Origin: an uncultured Christensenellaceae bacterium | GTDB lineage: Bacteria > Bacillota > Clostridia > Christensenellales > UBA3700 | Length of the DNA stretch: 64,000 nt | Reading direction: 5' to 3' | Assembly: GCA_944380295.1 (NCBI GenBank) | Contig: CALWHE010000006.1 | Location: 11,670 to 75,669, forward strand | Part shown: positions 3,982-51,000 of the stretch, piece after piece | Position numbering within the stretch: position 1 is the stretch's first letter | How the letters are laid out: every line of letters starts with the position of its first letter | Position numbers and translations under genes: made by a program | Notes under the pieces: model-generated | What the model saw: the letters and a program-made list of their open reading frames with translations, nothing else | The model's database searches: none | Told to the model about the DNA's origin: nothing

Positions 3982-4059
3982 CTCTTCTCCTTTGCCGCAC
4001 GGCGGCTTTATCGGTTTGGTTTTTTTGCTATATGTTCAAAGCGCCTGCCGGCGCATTCC

Positions 4060-4540
4060 CCTTGCGGCTTTTGCCCTGCCGCGACCGGCATGCGGATAAG
4101 CGCTCCCCGGCGCAAGTCTTGTCTTACTTGCGGCAGAACGGTTTGCCACCCACGCGCTCCCCCTGCGGCTTTTGCCCTGCCGCGACCGGCATGCGGATAA
4201 GCGCTCCCCGGTGCAAGTCCGCTTATTTGCGGCAGGACGGCTTGCCACCCGCGCGCGCCCCCTGCGGCTTTTGCCCTGCCGCGACCGGCATGCGGATAAG
4301 CGCTCCCCGGCGCAAGTCTTGTCTTACTTGCGGCAGGACGGCTTGCCACCCGTGCGCCCCCTGCGGCTTTTGCCTGATGTCACCGGCATGCGGATAAGCG
4401 CTCCCCGGCGCAAGTCTTGTCTTACTTGCGGCAGGACGGCTTGCCACCCGTGCGCCCCCTGCGGCTTTTGCCCTGCCGCGACCGGCATGCGGATAAGCGC
4501 TCCCTGGTGCAAGTCTTGTCTTACTTGCAGCGTTCGGGCA
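4060..4540. repeat. Tandem array, about 98 bp x 5
   Basis: Unit ccctgcggcttttgccctgccgcgaccggcatgcggataagcgctccccggcgcaagtcttgtcttacttgcggcaggacggcttgccaccc... starts at about 4060, 4162, 4260, 4358 and 4456. Internal hairpin CGCAAGT n8 ACTTGCG. Confidence 0.9.
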
Positions 4541-4757
4541 TAAAAAGCTCCGCGCCGCCATCTGCCGGCGCCGCGCGCTTGCGTTTTGCATGAAACTCTT
4601 TTGAACTCCGCGGGATCCGCCGCGCAAACAGACCTCTCGGCGGGCTTTAAGTCCCCGCCGCGGCGGCGCTTCAAACCGCCGTTTGCGCCCTTCCTTTTTC
4701 CACACTTCCATTGTATCATACAAAACTCCGGTTTTCAAGATTAGAGTGCAAAAAATT

Positions 4758-8035: not shown

Positions 8036-8160
8036 ATCAGCGGCTGGGGGTGCCTCCGAGGAGGCTGAGAGAGTCCCTTTGAACTTGGTCAAGGTAATTC
8101 TTGCGAAAGGAAGCAAAATCGGAAATGTTTTCTTAAAGTTCCTTCAGCCGAAGGAGTTTT
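8036..8160 (+). ncRNA. TPP (THI-box) riboswitch with expression platform
   Basis: ctgggggtgcc..ggCTGAGAgagtccctttGAACttGgtCaaggTAATtcttGCGaaAGGAAgc matches the THI-box core. Downstream hairpin TCCTTC agcc GAAGGA plus T7 sequesters the GGAG RBS just before ATG 8164 of a thiamine transporter. Confidence 0.85.
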
Positions 8161-9542: not shown

Positions 9543-9640
9543 GCAATGTTTTTCCGCAAATTCGCCGCACTTTTTTAGCGATTTTCGGCGATTTTTCTTT
9601 TACGGAAAATGCTTTGTATATGTTTATTATTTTGATTTTT

Positions 9641-9770
9641 CGGCAAGTTGGCGGGATTTTGTTCGGCAAGTTGGCGGGATTTTGTTCGGCAAGTTGGCGG
9701 GATTTCGTTCGGCAAGTTGGCGTGATTTCGTTCGGCAAGTTGGCGGGATTTCGTTCGGCAAGTCGGCAAA
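9641..9770. repeat. 23-bp tandem repeat, five full copies plus a partial sixth
   Basis: CGGCAAGTTGGCGGGATTT(T/C)GTT at 9641, 9664, 9687, 9710 and 9733, with a partial copy at 9756. Confidence 0.9.
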
Positions 9771-9875
9771 GGCGCGCTTTGTTTTGGCGGCGGCGCGCGG
9801 CGGGCGAAAAATTCGCGCGGGCAAAGCGTTGCCGTTTATTTGTGTTTTTTTCTTTTGCGTGTTATAATCGTTAGT

Positions 9876-10699: not shown

Positions 10700-12121
10700 A
10701 TGCGTTACAGCAAAAAAGAGATGAAGATCCGCGTGGATTACAATAACATGATGTCCGCCGTCCTGGGCAGGGGTCGCGGCATTGCCGCCGCAGACGTGGA
10801 AAGCGTGGCGGCGCGCGCGGACAAGGCGTTCAACGCCGTGGCGGCAAAGTCCGGCATCGGCATGATGGGCTGGACCAAACTTGCCGGCGGACAGGCGGAC
10901 GTGGTGGAAGAGATAATTGCCACCGCCAAGCAGGTGCGCCGCGACTGCGAATATTTTGTGGTGCTGGGCATAGGCGGCAGCGCGCTGGGTCCCATTGCGG
11001 CGTTCAGAGCCATCAAGCACTTGCACTATAACGACTTGAAAAAGAGCAAACGCCGCGGTCCCAAGTTTTATGTGGAAGACAACGTGGATCCCGAGCGCAT
11101 GGCGGCGCTTTTGGACGTTATCGAACCGGAAAAGACCATTTTCAACGTGATAACCAAATCCGGCTCCACTTCCGAAACCATGACCCAGTATCTTATCGTG
11201 AACGACATACTCAAAAAGGTCCTGGGCGATAAAGCCAAAGACCACATCATCACCACCACTTCCCGCACCAAGGGCAACCTGATCAAGCTGGCGCAAAAGC
11301 ACGGTTACAAGACCTTTTATATCCCGGACGGCGTGGGCGGCAGATTCAGCGAGCTGTGCCCCGTGGGACTTTTGCCCGCCGCCGTGCTGGGCATAGACAT
11401 CCGCGGCTTGCTCGCGGGCGCCAAGTTCATGCAGGAGCTGTGCGAAAACCCCAACATGAAGCGCAACCCCGCCCTGATGAGCGCCGCGCTCATGTATATC
11501 GCCATGACCAAATACGGCAAAAACATCTCCGTGATGATGCCTTACGCAGACAGCCTGCAATTCATCGCGGACTGGTATGCGCAGCTGTGGGCGGAAAGCC
11601 TGGGCAAAAACAAGACGCTCGACGGCAAAGACTGCAACGTGGGTCAGACCCCCGTCAAGGCGTTGGGCGTGACCGACCAGCACTCGCAGGTGCAGCTTTA
11701 CACGGAAGGACCTTTCGACAAGGTGATCACCTTCATCGGCGTGGACGCATACCGCACCGACGTGACCATACCCGGCGGCTGCGAGGAGATCCCGGACGTG
11801 AACTTCCTCTCCGGACACACGATGAGCGAACTTATCAAAGCCGAACAAAAAGCCACCGAATACGCCGTGACCAAGGCGGGCAAGATGAATTACACCATCA
11901 CCCTGCCCGTGGTGAACGAATTCACGCTGGGACAGCTTTTGATGCTGTTCATGATGGAAACGGCATATTGCGGCGAATTGCTTGGCATAGACGCCTTCAA
12001 CCAGCCGGGCGTGGAAGAGGGCAAAAACGCCACTTACGCGCTTTTGGGCAGGAACGGTTACGAAGAGAAGAAAAAGGAGCTGGACGCGGCGCCGGCGAAA
12101 CAGACAAAATACATAATATAA
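10700..12121 (+). CDS. pgi: Glucose-6-phosphate isomerase
   Basis: Bacterial-type PGI motifs (VLGIGGSALGP, ITKSGSTSET, GGRFS, QHSQ.QL). GGAGG RBS. Confidence 0.95.
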   Translation: MRYSKKEMKIRVDYNNMMSAVLGRGRGIAAADVESVAARADKAFNAVAAKSGIGMMGWTKLAGGQADVVEEIIATAKQVRRDCEYFVVLGIGGSALGPIAAFRAIKHLHYNDLKKSKRRGPKFYVEDNVDPERMAALLDVIEPEKTIFNVITKSGSTSETMTQYLIVNDILKKVLGDKAKDHIITTTSRTKGNLIKLAQKHGYKTFYIPDGVGGRFSELCPVGLLPAAVLGIDIRGLLAGAKFMQELCENPNMKRNPALMSAALMYIAMTKYGKNISVMMPYADSLQFIADWYAQLWAESLGKNKTLDGKDCNVGQTPVKALGVTDQHSQVQLYTEGPFDKVITFIGVDAYRTDVTIPGGCEEIPDVNFLSGHTMSELIKAEQKATEYAVTKAGKMNYTITLPVVNEFTLGQLLMLFMMETAYCGELLGIDAFNQPGVEEGKNATYALLGRNGYEEKKKELDAAPAKQTKYII

Positions 12122-12124
12122 GCG

Positions 12125-13335
12125 AAAGAGAAAAAGGATAAGGCGGGTCCCGTTTTCAACGGGATCTGCCTTTTCCTCTTTCGCTTCCTGAAAGACAACC
12201 CCGGCATTCGCAATCGACATAATCATTCCAATATACTTTTATTCAGGGTGCAGCGTCACGCTGCCTCCGCCCCCTACACCGTGAAATCGATTGCTTGAGC
12301 CGCGGTTTTCTCTCTTTTTGCGGAACACGATATCGCATATCGCGCTTGGTCTTGCCGCAAAAATTCACTCTTTCCGCCCTCATTCGCTCCGCGCGCTCCG
12401 CTCATTCGGAAAATGCGCACGGCGCATTTTAGAGGTAACGCTTGGCAAAAGTGTGATTTTGCCGCGCTTTATTACACTTTGCTACGGAAGCATTACGAAG
12501 AGATTAGCCGGATAAACGAACAAGTGACTTCAAGGCATATAATGGGTGCAGCGGCACGCTGCCCGCCACGTCCGCGATGCGCCGTGCTATGCACGGCAGT
12601 ATGAGCGGACATTTCACGTGCCCTCTCGTCGCTTTGCGGTTTGATGGCACATTTCACGTTTTTGCCAACTCGTTGGCAAAAACATTTCACTTTTCGGCAG
12701 AAAAAACGCGGCGCTTGCGCAACCGCTATATCTGCCGAAAAATTTCACGTCCGTAGCGGCACGGCACACTTTCGTTTATAGATTTTGCCGTGCCGCGCAG
12801 GACATAAAGGGGTGGAGCGCCCCGCGCTCCGGGCGCAGCATTATATTCTAATAACGCCGCAGGCAGCCGCCACGCACGACGAGCGCGGAGCTGTATCGTC
12901 GTGCATTTCACGTGCCCTCTCTGTGAGCGCGCAAGTTCTTCACATTGCGGTCACATATGATCGGGGTGCAGCGTCACGCTGCTTTGAGGGCACATTTCAC
13001 GTTTTTGCCAAGGTGTTGGCAAAAACATTTCACTTTTGCGCGGTTGGCATATCATATATGTTTGTCTATGATGATAATTATGCCGGACAGACGTCTATAA
13101 GGGTGCGCAGGAGAGTGATGGATTTGCGTGCGGATTTGGACAAATGTGCCGCAGGCAATACTTGTTGTATTGTCAAGGCGCATTTGTGCAAAGGCGTGCG
13201 TAAAGACGCGCCCTACTGCGTGCCCGCATAGCGTCTGTCCGGCAGAGAAAAATATCACGTCCGGAGCAAGGGCACATTTCTTCGCTTATCGCTCATTGTG
13301 CCCTTGCGCAGGACATAAAGCGCTCCTGCCCGCTT
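12125..13335 (+). repeat. Mosaic intergenic repeat region: module L, then two heptamer-hairpin cassettes, the second carrying module E
   Basis: L at 12125..12565. Cassettes at 12565..12803 and 12805..13315. ATTTCAC at about 12610, 12650, 12685, 12742, 12903, 12990 and 13030. E at 13083..13242. Confidence 0.9.
12142..12182. terminator. Bidirectional terminator-like hairpin at the start of repeat module L
   Basis: GGCGGGTCCCGTT ttc AACGGGATCTGCC followed by a T-rich run and preceded by an A-rich run. The same hairpin module follows the aminotransferase gene (about 29430..29470) and rnj (about 36960..37010). Confidence 0.7.
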
Positions 13336-13419
13336 TTCCTTGACACCTGCGCGCCTTTATGATATATTATAGACAAATTGATTTTCACATGCGTTATGCG
13401 CGTGTCTTACGGGGACGAA

Positions 13420-28439: not shown

Positions 28440-29482
28440 TGATAACATAAGCGCGCGTGTATGTCAAGAAAGCAGAATTATGTCCTGCACAAGGGCGCAA
28501 TGAGCGATAAGCGAAGAAATGCGCCCTTGCTCCGGACGTGAAATTTTTGCGCAGATATAAGTGAGCGGTAAGCGAACATAACTTCCGCGCAAAAGTGAAA
28601 TGTTTTTGCCAACTCGTTGTCAAAAACGTGAAATGTGCCCTCAAACCGCAGAGCGACGAGAGAGCACGTGAAATGTTTGCTCATACTGCCGCAAAGCGGC
28701 GCATCGCAAACGTGGCGGCTGCCTGCGGCGCTATTAGAGTATAATGCTGCACCCGGAGCGCGGGGCGGTCCACCCCTTTATGTCCTGCGCCGCCAAACAA
28801 GAGTGAAAAGCGACAAAAATGTTTGGCGGCTCCGGACGTGAAATTTTTGCGCAGATATAAATAAGCGGTAAGCGAACGTATAATGCTGCGCAAAAGTGAA
28901 ATGTTTTTGCCTCGCAAGGCAAAAACGTGAAATGTGCCCTCAAACCGCAAGCGACGAGAGGGCACGTGAAATGTTTGCTCATACTGCCGCAAAGCGGCGC
29001 ATCGCAAACGTGGCGGCTGCCTGCGGCACTATTAGAATATAATGCTGCACCGGAGCGCGGGGCGCTCCACCCCTTACACGCCTTGACGTCACTTTTCTGT
29101 ATTTTCAGCCAATCGCTTTGCAATACCTACCCAATTAAGTGTAATAAAGCGCGGCAAAATCACATTTTTGCCAAGCGTCACCTCAAAAATGCGCCGTGCG
29201 CATTTTCCGAATGAGCGGAGCACGCGAAGCGAATGAGGGCGGAAAGAGTGAATTTTTGCGGCACGACCAAGCGCGCCACGAGATTACGCCGCCCGCAAAA
29301 AGAGAGAAAACCGCGGCTCAAGCAATCGAATCCGCGGCAAAGTGGCGGAGGCAGCGCGGTGCTGAACTCTAAATAAAATTATATTGGAATGATAATGTCG
29401 ATTGCGAATGCCGGGGTTGTCTTTCGGGAAGCGAAAAATGAAAGGGCAGTTTCCGTTGTAAACGAAAACCGCCCTATCCCTT
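28440..29482 (-). repeat. Mosaic repeat region: two head-to-tail heptamer-hairpin cassettes plus module L
   Basis: Cassettes at 28478..28776 and 28778..29073. L at about 29075..29482, ending in the terminator hairpin next to the aminotransferase stop. Confidence 0.92.
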
Positions 29483-30760
29483 TTATTTTTCGCTTATCTT
29501 AATTAGCTTTTCTATGCACGCCACCTTTATGCAGCACACCAACACTTTGAGCGCCTGCTCGAACTCCTCTTCCGTGGCAAAGGTGGGAGCGATGCGGATA
29601 TTGCTGTCTTTGTCGTCCACGCCGTAAGGGAAAGTGTCGCCCACGTTGGTGACGGTAAGTCCCACGCTCTTGCACAGCTTGCCCACTTCTTTGGCGCAGC
29701 CGTCCAGCACGTCCAGGCTGATGAAGTAACCGCCGCGCGGTTTGGTCCAGCGCGCGATACCGCTGTTTTCGCCGAACTCTTCGGAGAAGACTTCTTCAAA
29801 TTTTTCAAACTTAGGGCGGATAAGAGCCGCCTGTTTTGCCATGATGGCAGCCACGTTCTCCGGCGATTGCAGATAGAGGTAATGCGCGTATTGCCACACC
29901 TTGTTAAAGCCGATGGTCTGGAACTTCATGTGCGAGAGGACGTCGGCGATATTGTTCTTGCTTGCCGCCATCACCGCCACGCCCGCGCCGGCGAACGTCA
30001 CTTTGGACGTGGAAGCGAATTCGTATATCCTGTCCGCCGTGCCCGCTTCTTTGGCGATGTCCATGATGTTGGCGAGCTTGTCGCCCTGCTCGTAAAGGTC
30101 GTGCACGCAATAAGCGTTGTCCCAGAAGATGCGGAAGTCCTTGGCAGCGGTGGTCATTTTGGCAAGGCGCTCCACCGTTTCGTCCGAGAAGGTGTAACCG
30201 GTGGGGTTCTGATATTTGGGCACGCACCAGATGCCCTTCACGCTCTCATCGGACGCCGCCAGCATCTCCACCAGCTCCATATTGGGACCGGCGGGGGTCA
30301 TGGGCACGTTGATCATCTCTATGCCGAAGTGCTGGCAGATGGCAAAATGCCTGTCATAACCGGGCACGGGGCAGAGAAATTTGACCTTGCCGGCGTTCCA
30401 AGGCTTGCCGCCGCACACGCCGAACTGCATGGCGCGCTGGACGGTGTCGAACATCATTTGCAGGCTGGAATTGCCGCCGATGACGGTTTCTTCCTTTTCC
30501 ACGCCCAAGATCTTGGCAAACAGGGCGCGCAGCTCCGGAATGCCTTCCAAGCCGCCGTAATTGCGGTAATCGGGCTTGGGAAATTGAGTGGCGGAATTTA
30601 TCATATCCAACATGGGCATGGTGATGTCCATCTGCTGCGGGCAGGGTTTGCCGCGCGAGATGTCCAGGGATATCTTTTGTTTTTTGATCTCTTTGAGCAC
30701 CTTGTTCTGCTCTCCGAGCGCCTGTTGCAACTCTTCCTTGCTCATCTTGGTGTAATTCAT
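29483..30760 (-). CDS. PLP-dependent aminotransferase, class I/II fold (aspartate/aromatic-like)
   Basis: PLP-lysine context ASTSKVTFAGAG, about 425 aa. ATG 30760 has better spacing from GAGAGG than ATG 30766. Confidence 0.8.
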   Translation of the reverse strand: MNYTKMSKEELQQALGEQNKVLKEIKKQKISLDISRGKPCPQQMDITMPMLDMINSATQFPKPDYRNYGGLEGIPELRALFAKILGVEKEETVIGGNSSLQMMFDTVQRAMQFGVCGGKPWNAGKVKFLCPVPGYDRHFAICQHFGIEMINVPMTPAGPNMELVEMLAASDESVKGIWCVPKYQNPTGYTFSDETVERLAKMTTAAKDFRIFWDNAYCVHDLYEQGDKLANIMDIAKEAGTADRIYEFASTSKVTFAGAGVAVMAASKNNIADVLSHMKFQTIGFNKVWQYAHYLYLQSPENVAAIMAKQAALIRPKFEKFEEVFSEEFGENSGIARWTKPRGGYFISLDVLDGCAKEVGKLCKSVGLTVTNVGDTFPYGVDDKDSNIRIAPTFATEEEFEQALKVLVCCIKVACIEKLIKISEK

Positions 30761-36062: not shown

Positions 36063-36069
36063 ATCGCGC

Positions 36070-37030
36070 CGCTCTTATTATAGCAATTCTCCGCGAACAA
36101 GTAAAGGGAGTGCGGGGCGGGCAGCGTGACGCTGCACGCTTTATGTCCTGCGCAAGGGCGCAATGAGCGATAAGCGAAGAAATGCGCCCTTGCTCCGGAC
36201 GTGATATATTTTGCCGTGACAGACATATGAAATAAGCGTAAAAACACCAAACGGCAAAATGCGATATGTCGGCTACGCCGACGCGATATGTCCTGCGCGG
36301 CACGGCAAAGTCAATAAGCAAAAGTGTGCCGTGCCGCTCCGGACGCGATATTTTTGCGCGGATATATGTGAGCGGCAAGCGAACATAACTTCCGCGCAAA
36401 AGCGAAATGTTTTTGCCTTGCAAGGCAAAAACGTGAAATGTGCTCTTAAACCGCTCCGCGACGAAAGAGCACGTGAAATGTTTGCTCATACTGCCACAAA
36501 GCGGCGCATCGCAAACGTGGCGGCTGCCTGCGGCGCTATTAGAGTATAATACTGCACCCCTAATAAAGTGTAATAAAGCGCAGCAAAATCGCACTTTTGC
36601 CAAGCGTCACCTCTAAAATGCGCCGTGCGCATTTTCCGAATGAGCGGAGCGCGCGGAGCGGCAGCGTGACGCTGCACCCTGATAAATATAATATACCGCC
36701 GTCCAAAACCGCGCTTTTGGACGAGCGCACCTTGGGCAAGGCGACTGCCTTGCGCGCCGCTTCGCGGCGGCGGAAAGAGTGAATTTTTGCGGTAAGACCA
36801 AGCGCGATACGAGATTACGCCGCCCGCAAAAAGAGAGAAAACCGCGGCTCAAGCAACCGATTTCACGGCAAAGTGGCGGAGGCAGCGTGATGCTGCACCA
36901 CAATTAAAAGTATATTGGGAATGATAATATCGATTGCGAATGCCGGGGTTGTCTTTCGAGAAGCGAAAGAGGAAAAGGCAGTTCCCGTTTGTAACGGGAA
37001 AAGCCTTATCCTTTTTCTCTTTCGCTTATT
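36070..37030 (-). repeat. Mosaic repeat region between rnj and the methyltransferase gene
   Basis: Degenerate cassette at 36141..36560, with heptamer variants GTGATAT, GCGATAT and GCGAAAT as well as GTGAAAT at 36433 and 36473. Module G at about 36690..36765. Module L at about 36560..37030 with its terminator hairpin next to the rnj stop. Confidence 0.9.
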
Positions 37031-37032
37031 TC

Positions 37033-39015
37033 TTATACTTCGATTATTATCGGCAATATCATCGGCTTCTGCCTGTTCATATCAAAATATCTGGTCAGCG
37101 TGCGCTTTAATTTGCGTTTGCAGTTCGCCCTGTCGTCGGCGGACTTGTAATCGCGTTCGTCCAGCACGTTTGCCACCAGCCCGCGCACCGCATCTATCTC
37201 CGCCTCTTCCAGCTGCATGCCGCGCGTTATCACTTCCGCGGGCGCCACCGCCTTGCCTTCCGCCAGCGCCACCGTGACCAGCACCATGACGATGCCGTTA
37301 TTGCTCAACTGGCGGCGGTCGCGCAAGGTGACGTTATCCACGTCCGTCAAGCCGTCCACATACACGTTGCCCGCCTCCACCCGCTCTTCCGCTTTGAGGG
37401 AGTGGCGGTGCAGCACAAAGCGCGAACCTATCTCCGCAATGGCTATGGCGGAAGGCTTCATGCCCAAAGACACCGCCAAAGCCTCGTGCTGGCGCAGGTG
37501 GCGGTATTCCCCGTGTACGGGAATGAAAAATTCCGGTTTGATCAAAGAAAGCATGAGTTTGAGTTCGTCCTGGCAGGCGTGACCGGACACGTGCAGCGCT
37601 TCCAAAGAGCCGTAAAGCACGCCGGCGCCGCGGCGATAAAGGTTGTTTATCACCGTATACACCAATTTTTCGTTGCCGGGAATGGGATTTGAAGAGATAA
37701 CGACCAGATCGTGCGCGCCCACTTCTATCTTGTCTTCCCCCGCCGCCATGCGCGTGAGAGCGCTCATCGGCTCGCCCTGCGAACCGGTGGTTATCAGGCA
37801 TTGTTTGGCATAATGGTGCTTGTGCATCTCTTCCGGCTCTATGACGGTGCCGTCTTTGACTTTGAGCAAGCCCAGCTCGCGCGCCATGCCGGAGATGTTC
37901 ACCATGCTCCTGCCGTTGAAAACTATCTTGCGCCCGCACTTTTCGCAGATGTCCACGATCTGCTGCAAGCGGTTGACGTTGGAGGCAAAAGTGGCGATGA
38001 TGATGCGCTTGTCCTCATGCATGGCAAAAATGCGTTCCAGCGTTTCTCCCACCTTGCGTTCGGAAATGGTGGTGCCGGGCTTTTCCACGTTTGTGCTCTC
38101 CCCCAGCATCAGGCGCACGCCCTCTTTGCCTATCTGCGCGATGCGGGTGAGATCCATCACCTGCCCGCCCACGGGCGTATAGTCGATTTTATAGTCCCCC
38201 GTGTGGAAAACGCTGCCCACGGGCGTGCTTATGCTCAGCGCGAACGCACCGGAAATGCTGTGGCTGACGCGGATGAACTCCACGGAAAAACAGCCCGCGC
38301 GCACCACATCTCCGCCTTCGACCTTGACAAGGCGGGGCGAATTTATGCCGCGCTCTTCCAGCTTGTGCGAGATGAGCGCGCAGGAAAGATCGCTGGCGTA
38401 TATCCTCAGCTGAGGCAGCTTTTCCGCCAGATACGGCACCGCGCCGATGTGGTCTTCATGCCCGTGCGTGATGAACAAGCCGCGCACCTTGTCAGCGTTT
38501 TCCTCTATATAAGAAAAATCGGGAATGATCAGATCCACGCCCGGCGTATCCGTGGTGGGAAAGGAAGAGCCGCAGTCTATGATGACGATGTCGTTGCCAA
38601 AGCGCAGCGCGGTCATGTTTTTGCCAATCTCGCCCACGCCGCCCAAAAAGATGACTTCCAGCCCTTTTTTGCCGCCCTTGCCCGCGATCGAAGCGCCGCC
38701 CTCTATGGGCACGCCGTGCCGCTTGGGCACGGGTTTTGCCTGAACGCCCTTGTCCGCAGCCACCCTAACAGTGCTGTTTTTCTTTGCAGGGGATCGTCCC
38801 GCTTGATCGCCGCGCCCTTTTGCCGCATTTGCGCCGCGCCCCTTGCCCGCCGCCTTTGCGGGAGCGCCCTTGGCGCCCTGTCCCGCCTTGTCAGCGAAGC
38901 GGGACTGCTTTTGCCCGCTCTTTGCGCCCGGTTGCGCCGCACGCGCCTTTTTGTTCTCTTTGCTCTTGGGCGCGCCCTTTGCCGCCGCCGCTTTATTTTT
39001 TACTTTTTCCGCCAC
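37033..39015 (-). CDS. rnj: Ribonuclease J with a Lys/Ala/Gly-rich N-terminal extension of about 128 aa
   Basis: Metallo-beta-lactamase HGHEDHIG, beta-CASP and C-terminal domains. GTG start at 39015 with a GGAGA RBS. Confidence 0.93.
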   Translation of the reverse strand: MAEKVKNKAAAAKGAPKSKENKKARAAQPGAKSGQKQSRFADKAGQGAKGAPAKAAGKGRGANAAKGRGDQAGRSPAKKNSTVRVAADKGVQAKPVPKRHGVPIEGGASIAGKGGKKGLEVIFLGGVGEIGKNMTALRFGNDIVIIDCGSSFPTTDTPGVDLIIPDFSYIEENADKVRGLFITHGHEDHIGAVPYLAEKLPQLRIYASDLSCALISHKLEERGINSPRLVKVEGGDVVRAGCFSVEFIRVSHSISGAFALSISTPVGSVFHTGDYKIDYTPVGGQVMDLTRIAQIGKEGVRLMLGESTNVEKPGTTISERKVGETLERIFAMHEDKRIIIATFASNVNRLQQIVDICEKCGRKIVFNGRSMVNISGMARELGLLKVKDGTVIEPEEMHKHHYAKQCLITTGSQGEPMSALTRMAAGEDKIEVGAHDLVVISSNPIPGNEKLVYTVINNLYRRGAGVLYGSLEALHVSGHACQDELKLMLSLIKPEFFIPVHGEYRHLRQHEALAVSLGMKPSAIAIAEIGSRFVLHRHSLKAEERVEAGNVYVDGLTDVDNVTLRDRRQLSNNGIVMVLVTVALAEGKAVAPAEVITRGMQLEEAEIDAVRGLVANVLDERDYKSADDRANCKRKLKRTLTRYFDMNRQKPMILPIIIEV

Positions 39016-50514: not shown

Positions 50515-51000
50515 CCGCCCTTGCGCCGCCTTTTTGTCCGCCTTGCGCTTTGCCCCGCCTGGCTTTTGCCCTAGCTTTGCTTTCCGTTCCGCTTGGCTCT
50601 TGCTCTGCGCTCCGGCTTGGCTTTCGCTCTTGCGTTACGCTCATGCTTGGCTTTTGCCCTGCGTTGCGTTCTGCCCGGCTCTTGCCCTGCGTTGTATTCC
50701 GCTCCGCTTTGGCTTTTGCTCTTGCGTTCCGTTCGGCTCTTGCTTTGCTTTGCGTTCCGCTTGGTCTTTGCCTCGCGTTGCGTTCCGCCCGGCTCTTGCC
50801 CTGCGTTGTATTCCGCTCCGCTTTGGCTTTTGCTCTTGCGTTCCGTTCGGCTCTTGCTTTGCGTTCCGCTTGGTCTTTGCCTCGCGTTGCGCTCCGCCCG
50901 GCTCTTGCTCTGCGTTTCCGCCCCGCTCTTACCTTACATTGCGTTCCGCTTGGTCTTTTCGGTCGTCCGACAGCTCCCTTTGCCTTGTCGCGTTTTTTCG
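50515..51000. repeat. About 490 nt of degenerate tandem repeats between the CtsR-box promoter and ctsR
   Basis: About 110-nt unit seen twice nearly intact at about 50660..50770 and 50771..50880. Shorter gcgttccgcttgg(c/t)ctt.gc-type subrepeats occur throughout. T/C-rich on plus, purine-rich on the transcribed strand. Confidence 0.85.

Follow-up and report, generated by a model that had tools for sequence, protein, structure and literature searches.

We analysed a 64,000-nt stretch of DNA (hereafter, the window) from an uncultured Christensenellaceae bacterium (assembly GCA_944380295.1, here labelled G000; 1.75 Mb, 27 contigs), which covers positions 11670-75669 of contig C6 (CALWHE010000006.1). 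Three genes of the window are followed by copies of one long repeat, L, the first part of which is a hairpin module, T, that begins with a stop codon. The reading we favour, at a probability of roughly 0.58, is that T, a dispersed repeat, serves as a Rho-independent terminator with its own stop codon and heads a recombining array of hairpin repeats.

The recurrence of L had been noted in an earlier reading of the window made from its letters alone (hereafter, the sequence-only reading). All three copies were recovered; they are 83-92% identical, and in each the hairpin end lies at the stop codon. The preceding genes encode PGI (PF00342), an Asp-type aminotransferase (PF00155/PF12897) and RNase J (rnj). 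A repeat finder, run on the window, paired the copies as reverse complements: 12279-12559 with 29057-29337 (281 nt, 84%), 12102-12271 with 29344-29513 (170 nt, 84%), 12107-12229 with 36918-37040 (87%), 12279-12378 with 36769-36868 (90%), and 12385-12495 with 36550-36660 (92%). Reading of the sequence gave the same order of landmarks in all three: the T hairpin, gacaaccccggcattcgcaatcga, a palindrome termed P2, a AAAATGCGC...GCGCATTTT hairpin and a GGCAAAA...TTTTGCC hairpin. A fixed order ending in an F module had been claimed. The order of landmarks stood; the copy after rnj has no F and carries an insert of ~108 nt (36661-36768). The TCCCGTT/AACGGGA stem that had been ascribed to the hairpin is found in some copies, the apical stem being variable, with TTTCGTT/AACGGAAA in others.

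In a BLAST comparison with the whole genome, L gave 92 partial matches with recurrent break points. It was split at these points into five modules: T (1-87), A (88-173), B (174-257), C (258-340) and F (341-438). In the window they are arranged as follows.

12119-12186, plus strand: T of copy 1; the TAA, which is the pgi stop, heads a 68-nt hairpin, TAAGCGAAAGAGAAAAAGGATAAGGCGGGTCCCGTT-TTC-AACGGGATCTGCCTTTTCCTCTTTCGCTT, terminator-like on the plus strand and with covariation; the BLAST-defined T reaches 12208.
12209-12294, plus strand: A of copy 1; gacaaccccggcattcgcaatcga arm, P2 palindrome (GGTGCAGCGTCACGCTGCC) and return arm; optional, with fillers A' (GGGGACACCCCGCCATTCAAAAATAAAACGA...) and A'' elsewhere.
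12295-12378, plus strand: B of copy 1; hairpin TTTTTGCGG...CCGCAAAAA, then the linker word TTCAC.
12379-12461, plus strand: C of copy 1; hairpins AAAATGCGCacgGCGCATTTT and GGCAAAAgtgtgaTTTTGCC.
12462-12559, plus strand: F of copy 1; ATTACAC linker, a unique stretch and a P2-like palindrome.
29407-29496, minus strand: T of copy 2; T2 basal stem and apical stem b, with its own TAA at 29496-29494.
29057-29406, minus strand: remainder of copy 2; A 29322-29406, B 29238-29321, C 29155-29237, F 29057-29154.
36939-37028, minus strand: T of copy 3; T1 basal stem and apical stem c, with its own TAA at 37028-37026.
36584-36938, minus strand: remainder of copy 3; A 36853-36938, B 36769-36852, an inserted H hairpin with P2 at 36661-36768, C 36584-36660; no F.

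TAA stands directly before the BLAST-defined T in all 30 genome copies, seven of which lie in the interior of tandem arrays, and likewise before a 31st copy found by pattern search. The same was seen after pgi in 10/10 contigs of conspecific strains, and in 28/28 copies from four sister species. The TAA is therefore part of the element. Its AA pairs with the terminal UU of the T stem, and T offers stops in all three frames, at 0, +20 and ~+70.

An alignment of 33 distinct T sequences gave a hairpin of 23 pairs with 95% of the cells paired. Twelve pairs had changed on both sides; the observed covariation score was reached by 0/500 shuffles, and sliding the partner columns halved the pairing. 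The basal stem exists in three compensated versions (GCGAAAGAGAAAAAGG/CCTTTTCCTCTTTCGC; GCGAAAAACAAAAGGG/CCCTTT(C/T)GTTTTTCGC; GTGAAAGACGAAAAGG/CCTTTCCGTCTTTCAC), which combine freely with at least five apical stems. This compensatory variation is strong and, as judged from the alignment, the structure is under selection. From the TAA onwards, a purine-rich A-tract is followed by a GC-rich apical stem of 7-10 bp that is free to covary, a loop of 3-4 nt and a U-rich tract. This is the layout of a Rho-independent terminator (GC stem, short loop, U-rich tract), with an interruption in the U-tract. The hairpin had been described as a bidirectional terminator, a property that the data do not show: a simple terminator scan flagged T on the gene-sense strand in 3/3 window copies and never on the antisense strand.

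The placement of T was surveyed across the genome, as the sequence-only reading had suggested. Genes were taken from our own codon-usage calls, with misfits checked by hand, and the census comprised the 24 T copies that lead an intergenic island. In 23 of the 24, a co-oriented open reading frame (ORF) had its stop in a range from 20 nt inside T to 8 nt ahead of it. For two of these the ORF is weak: it is 67 aa long in one case and truncated at the end of a contig in the other, where the orthologue in the sister species G005 backs it. Against uniform placement in 347 kb of intergenic DNA, the 23 of 24 give p ~1e-29, a strict association in both orientation and stop distance. For 12 of these 23 copies, the TAA of T was itself the gene stop. 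Nine had the stop 5-8 nt upstream of T across purines (TAA GAA TAAGCG, etc.), and in two the ORF entered T and stopped at an internal TAA or at the bulged GGATAAGG. T orientation agreed with that of the upstream gene in 23/24 cases and with the sign of the local GC skew in 15/24, compared with 77% skew agreement for all genes; it therefore follows transcription, not replication. Where two genes were co-directional, T was at the stop of the upstream gene and not on the promoter side of the downstream one (13/13 pairs).

At the three window loci, the junction takes three forms. The hairpin module opens with the very TAA that stops pgi. The rnj stop, TAA at 37035-37033 (minus strand), lies 7 nt upstream of T's own TAA (TAA GAAA TAAGCG). 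The aminotransferase ORF passes the TAA of T out of frame, continues 11 nt into the module and stops at 29485-29483 in the 5' arm, with its last four residues, ISEK, encoded by T. The repeat islands take up everything between the stop codon and a point ~20 nt short of the next -35 box, and the following promoter-like sites all lie in single-copy sequence.

13340-13368, plus strand: promoter-like site of the MMPL transporter gene, TTGACA-17-TATATT with TG, ~20 nt past the end of the pgi island.
28467-28439, minus strand: similar promoter-like site.
36105-36077, minus strand: promoter-like site of the O-methyltransferase gene, TTTACT-17-TATAAT with TG.

Beyond T, the composition of L was loose. 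The BLAST matches comprised 30 copies of T, 11 of A, 25 of B, 31 of C and 46 of F. Whenever two or more modules of T-led arrays occurred together, they were on one strand and in the order T-[A]-B-C-[F], with A frequently exchanged for other fillers. Of the B copies, 24 of 25 were inside T-led arrays; those of F were mostly apart from T. The T-to-C core (~330-360 nt) was repeated head to tail at five to six loci, for example as three units at G000:C3:78418-79280, with a fixed junction, GGGATATT-TGA-TAA-GCGAAAG. Modules B and C and an additional hairpin, H, form stem-loops with AWTWCAC words behind them, and the heptamer cassettes are built alike. L is the commonest string, T-(A)-B-C-(F), and not one fixed 430-nt unit; of the ~430 nt first taken as the unit, the anchored part is T alone (the first 68-87 nt), the other modules being optional, reiterated and shuffled. 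RNA folds of L were far better than those of shuffled sequences on both strands (z -6.3 and -5.3). No Rfam family matched inside L at the gathering threshold (whole window), and an E-value threshold (12050-13400) yielded chance hairpin matches only. A coding role was considered and rejected: the only frame that starts at the ATG at 12226 is a spurious one, antisense to pgi, and it is not kept in other copies.

Variation within the species singled out T in the same way. On ten contigs with an identical PGI protein, T was flush against the pgi TAA in 10/10, in the form of T1a, T1b, T3c, a chimera or a truncated T. Downstream of it, the modules differed from strain to strain and the spacer ranged from 483 to 1257 nt. 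At a given locus only T stays the same, which speaks against the second proposal of the sequence-only reading, that of a functional 3' untranslated region, for L in its entirety. The aminotransferase had two C-terminal alleles, ...KISEK* from a T2-type arm and ...KISE* from a T1-type arm. In the latter, the change from GCGAAAGAG to GCGAATGAG makes an in-frame TGA, and the partner change from CTCTTTCGC to CTCATTCGC preserves the pairing. Such a paired substitution, confined to this locus, is consistent with both an early stop and the hairpin being selected for. No empty site was found within the species, T being present in all 10 pgi, 3 rnj and 6 aminotransferase strain contigs.

Comparison with orthologous loci, another proposed check, revealed gain in this lineage: T was missing at the pgi, aminotransferase and rnj ends in the seven sister species. 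The repeat family itself was present in 7/7 other species of the genus and in 0/13 genomes from other genera. An exact 20-mer of T was found elsewhere only in metagenome-assembled genomes from chicken gut (Ca. Caccalectryoclostridium excrementigallinarum, Ca. Alloclostridium intestinigallinarum and uncultured Clostridia bins). At the pgi end, with T in 0/7 sister species, five had a short spacer, a private terminator and a promoter. DNA homology to the sisters ended at the last base of the pgi stop codon and resumed inside the next gene; exact insertion boundaries were not readable, because the sister-species spacers are too diverged to align. The sister aminotransferases end in ...KLIEQKA* with private terminators, and that of this genome in ...KLIKISEK*. 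In four sister species, the rnj TGA overlaps the ATG of an O-methyltransferase gene (PF01596) as ATGA, without any spacer. Here, rnj ends in TAA and a T-led island of 970 nt (window 36063-37032) parts the two genes. In this lineage, therefore, the island has opened up what was an operon junction.

Four further loci were compared across species. After ruvC, T was found in four species, at stop-to-T spacings of 0, 0, 0 and 13 nt, each with the T subtype of its own genome, which is concerted evolution. After a queA-like gene, two species had T with different junctions; in the sister genome G004, the ORF runs six codons into T. The remaining cases had private terminators, some of which resembled decayed T copies. 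Such terminators were seen in the sisters G003, G005 and G007, e.g. AAAAGGTATCTG...CAGGTACCTTTT after the C13 orthologue, and another in a sister species, TAG GCGGAAAAAG, after a DAHP-synthase-like gene. The age and the spread of T-type terminators in the genus may therefore exceed what BLAST reveals. From these comparisons, T is old in the genus, gained and lost locus by locus, and homogenised within genomes.

On the favoured reading, T placed against a gene end would close the frame and end the transcript before the structured repeat island. Modules A, B, C and F, as hairpins on AWTWCAC linkers, form fast-recombining filler that builds up between the terminator and the next promoter. Gene conversion evidently keeps the T copies of each genome alike. 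The colonisation of new loci would need insertion, or an illegitimate recombination that joins the TAA end of T to the last codons of a gene; the T ends are intact, not ragged, which points to a defined joining event.

Several observations weigh against T being a terminator, or against termination as the reason for its position. The U-tract is interrupted (UUUUCCUCUUUC), and the rnj copy passes the terminator scan only with a shorter stem of 8 bp. The one exception to the placement is the T-led array at G000:C3:79280, upstream of which lies just a divergent gene. Sense and antisense T RNAs fold with -31.8 and -30.6 kcal/mol, respectively, and the sense strand was the more stable in 26/44 sequences; the fold of T therefore does not identify the acting strand, and the hairpin could act as DNA. 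The heptamer cassettes end in a hairpin (ATGTCCTGCGC...GATAAGCGAAAG...) that lies 0-10 nt past the stop codons of 16 genes and is entered by a further 10 ORFs. Flush placement is thus common to T and cassette ends, and its cause may lie elsewhere than in termination. A terminator would serve equally from 30 nt downstream, and selection for termination alone does not explain a junction of 0-8 nt.

Two of these subjects have further details. The exceptional array (G000:C3:79214-79351) has a good ribosome-binding site and an 11-codon mini-ORF (ATGCAACAAATAATAAGC..., MQQIISEREKG*) running into T. Cassette ends of the flush type include those at window 3481 (minus strand), in the 60230 region, and at G000:C10:26700, C1:12846 and C4:11287; the loop of the cassette terminal hairpin carries TAAGCGAAAG, the same word that begins T.

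The alternative that survives best is that T, or the T-led core of ~330-360 nt, is a non-autonomous mobile element, inserted by a trans-acting enzyme at stops or gene ends, in one orientation and as a cassette. We consider this unlikely, with real points in its favour. The T end is intact and identical (TAAGCG...) at every locus, T sits at the upstream stop in all 13 co-directional pairs, and the rnj/O-methyltransferase overlap shows a gain where no spacer existed. Tandem reiteration has a fixed junction (GGGATATT-TGA-TAAGCG), and at one orthologous locus the stop-to-T spacing is 0, 5 and 6 nt in three species. As to miniature inverted-repeat transposable elements, the T stem could be taken for their terminal inverted repeats, and the sister spacers, which do not align, define no target-site duplication. 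Against such an element speaks the failure to find a partner enzyme. The Y1 transposase genes of the genome (PF01797; 2-3 copies, all IS200-like and behind ordinary terminators) had no T or P2 sequence flanking them, the genome search gave no reverse transcriptase match (RVT_1), so a retro-element origin was dropped, and no orphan T arms bracketed a larger element, the 54 arm matches making up 27 hairpins. No target-site duplication was readable, and the strain contigs (10 for pgi, 3 for rnj and 6 for the aminotransferase) showed no empty/filled polymorphism. A DNA enzyme also has no obvious means to recognise an in-frame stop codon, and the orientation of T is free of the replication strand, unlike in IS200/IS605 systems or those of the REP-associated tyrosine transposases (RAYTs; REP, repetitive extragenic palindrome). 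The mobile terminator cassette with a set orientation at gene ends, the first proposal of the sequence-only reading, found strong support in orientation and position (23/24 island-leading T copies, and likewise in four sister species), and the gain of T at new loci was shown. As to its mobility, an inference here, neither a transposase partner nor a target-site duplication nor a within-species empty/filled polymorphism was found.

Two specific candidates were rejected. Mobilisation of the RAYT/IS200 type was set aside, the Y1 genes being unrelated to the repeats and the T orientation having no replication-strand polarity. A reading of TAA...TAA as the target duplication of whole islands failed as well: the cassette end GCGCAGGACAT was followed by TAAA in only 29/157 pattern matches, many of them intragenic, and otherwise by varied sequence. 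The three IS200-like Y1 genes, one of them broken (G000:C5:40935-41252, C11:8468-8785 and C5:24818-25130), each lie just behind the terminator of a gene. They share the left end GTGTCAACGAAAACCCCGCGATAGTCGCGGGAGTTCAAAAGAGG, which also follows a fourth gene, and all three appear cut at the 3' end by AT-rich foreign DNA.

T could instead be a translation-coupled 3' element, which tunes the upstream gene because a hairpin starting inside the stop codon slows or stalls the terminating ribosome, protects the 3' end or is an RNase III site. The stop is indeed built into the base of a ~30 bp stem at distances of 0-8 nt, a closeness that would here be functionally required and would explain the flush placement, and the compensated, stop-creating mutation at the aminotransferase locus keeps both the early stop and the pairing. 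However, the genes concerned are housekeeping genes (pgi, rnj, ruvC) with no obvious gain from down-regulation, and the interior tandem copies, far from ORFs, keep the same TAA and structure, which leaves this explanation improbable. We give very little credence to T hairpins acting as DNA, as cruciform or protein-binding sites for chromosome organisation or as recombination hot spots with an incidental likeness to terminators: both strands fold equally well and the island is palindrome-rich and recombines rapidly, but the orientation follows transcription rather than replication, the bulged ATAA and the TAA break the symmetry and in every case lie towards the gene, and A-tract, GC stem and U-tract are laid out as in a terminator.

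A bolder reading would make the T-led units 'gene-end capping' elements. These would home to the last codons of genes and install stop, terminator and spacer in one step, would be able to split operons (rnj/O-methyltransferase), and would belong to a wider and largely undescribed class of stop-codon-anchored hairpin repeats. This reading is speculative, and the odds are well against it.

If T terminates, the ends of ~2% of the genes, among them pgi, rnj, ruvC and the aspartate aminotransferase gene, have been given over to one interchangeable repeat; the stop codon, too, and in one protein even the final residues come from it. It provides a natural case of repeats rewiring transcription units, with an operon split and a downstream gene that has its own promoter-like site. 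The exact junction, the invariant end and the strain differences make T a system in which to study how small repeats find gene ends. In practice, gene callers will mis-set C-termini at T loci, and assemblies tend to break in the islands.

Other features of the genome were recorded in passing. Two Avd-like four-helix-bundle genes (PF05635; G000:C3:34579-34878 and C9:12051-12347) are inside cassette-type islands, with no adjacent T. In the window, a thiamine pyrophosphate (TPP) riboswitch (RF00059, 62.9 bits) at 8036-8128 (plus strand) is upstream of a gene for a 378-aa thiamine-transporter-like protein (PF09515). Tandem tracts are present at 9616-9790 (23-nt unit x7, TTCGGCAAGTTGGCGGGATTTTG), 4048-4558 (~99-nt unit x5) and 50565-50996 (period ~28/81-86 nt).

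Among the known repeat systems, the BOX elements of Streptococcus pneumoniae (boxA-boxB(n)-boxC) resemble T-A-B-C-F in their fixed module order, their optional or reiterated internal modules and their structured transcript. They differ in having terminal inverted repeats and target-site duplications and no stop anchoring, whereas L has a polar head, T, and no matching tail. For palindrome elements derived from IS200/IS605 (PATE) and other repeats transposed as ssDNA, an orientation by replication strand is expected; T agreed with the sign of the local GC skew in only 15/24 cases. The Gut-1 RNA motif (RF01706; Weinberg et al. 2010, PMC2864571) is similar in another way: modules B, C and H share the AWTWCAC-joined hairpin design with the Gut-1-like heptamer cassettes, and T has no Gut-1 counterpart. 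A sub-threshold Gut-1 match (29.7 bits, threshold 50) at 12606-12713 lies in the cassette adjacent to L, and none was found inside L.

The L islands are also similar to the REPs and bacterial interspersed mosaic elements (BIMEs) of Enterobacteria. Both are intergenic mosaics of palindromic units and limited linkers, in L with the collinear grammar T[A]BC[F], and gene conversion homogenises them. Some BIMEs have reportedly been proposed as sites of chromosome organisation or recombination. T itself is a terminator-type hairpin with a U-tract, and REPs are by definition without one; T also lacks a 5' tetranucleotide of the GTAG type, and no repeat-flanked RAYT was found. In Escherichia coli, REPs within 15 nt of stop codons affect translation, and only ~11% of REPs are that close (PMC12306157), compared with 23/24 for T.

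The closest kind in print is SPRITE of Streptococcus pneumoniae, a terminator-like repeat that is enriched near the 3' ends of coding sequences and whose mode of spread is unknown (PMC3049150). T shares with it ~30 copies per genome, a long duplex followed by a U-rich tract, a position near coding-sequence 3' ends, A-rich/T-rich ends and restriction to a narrow clade. With 31 copies, 23/24 of the island-leading ones at a co-oriented stop, T has the features of SPRITE-like terminator repeats, a likeness of kind and not of membership in the pneumococcal family. SPRITE has been proposed as a co-opted terminator and, as for T, its target-site duplication is unknown; how repeats reach gene ends can also be asked of SPRITE and of the REPs near stops. 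T is placed far more exactly: its invariant TAA is the gene stop or at most 8 nt away from it, and its orientation to the upstream gene is strict. Unlike SPRITE, it heads a modular array, is reiterated in tandem and belongs to a Clostridia lineage of 56% GC. What is new in T is the invariant embedded TAA, the near-total anchoring to stops in one orientation, the splitting of an overlapping gene pair and the strain-level swaps of terminator subtype at a fixed junction.

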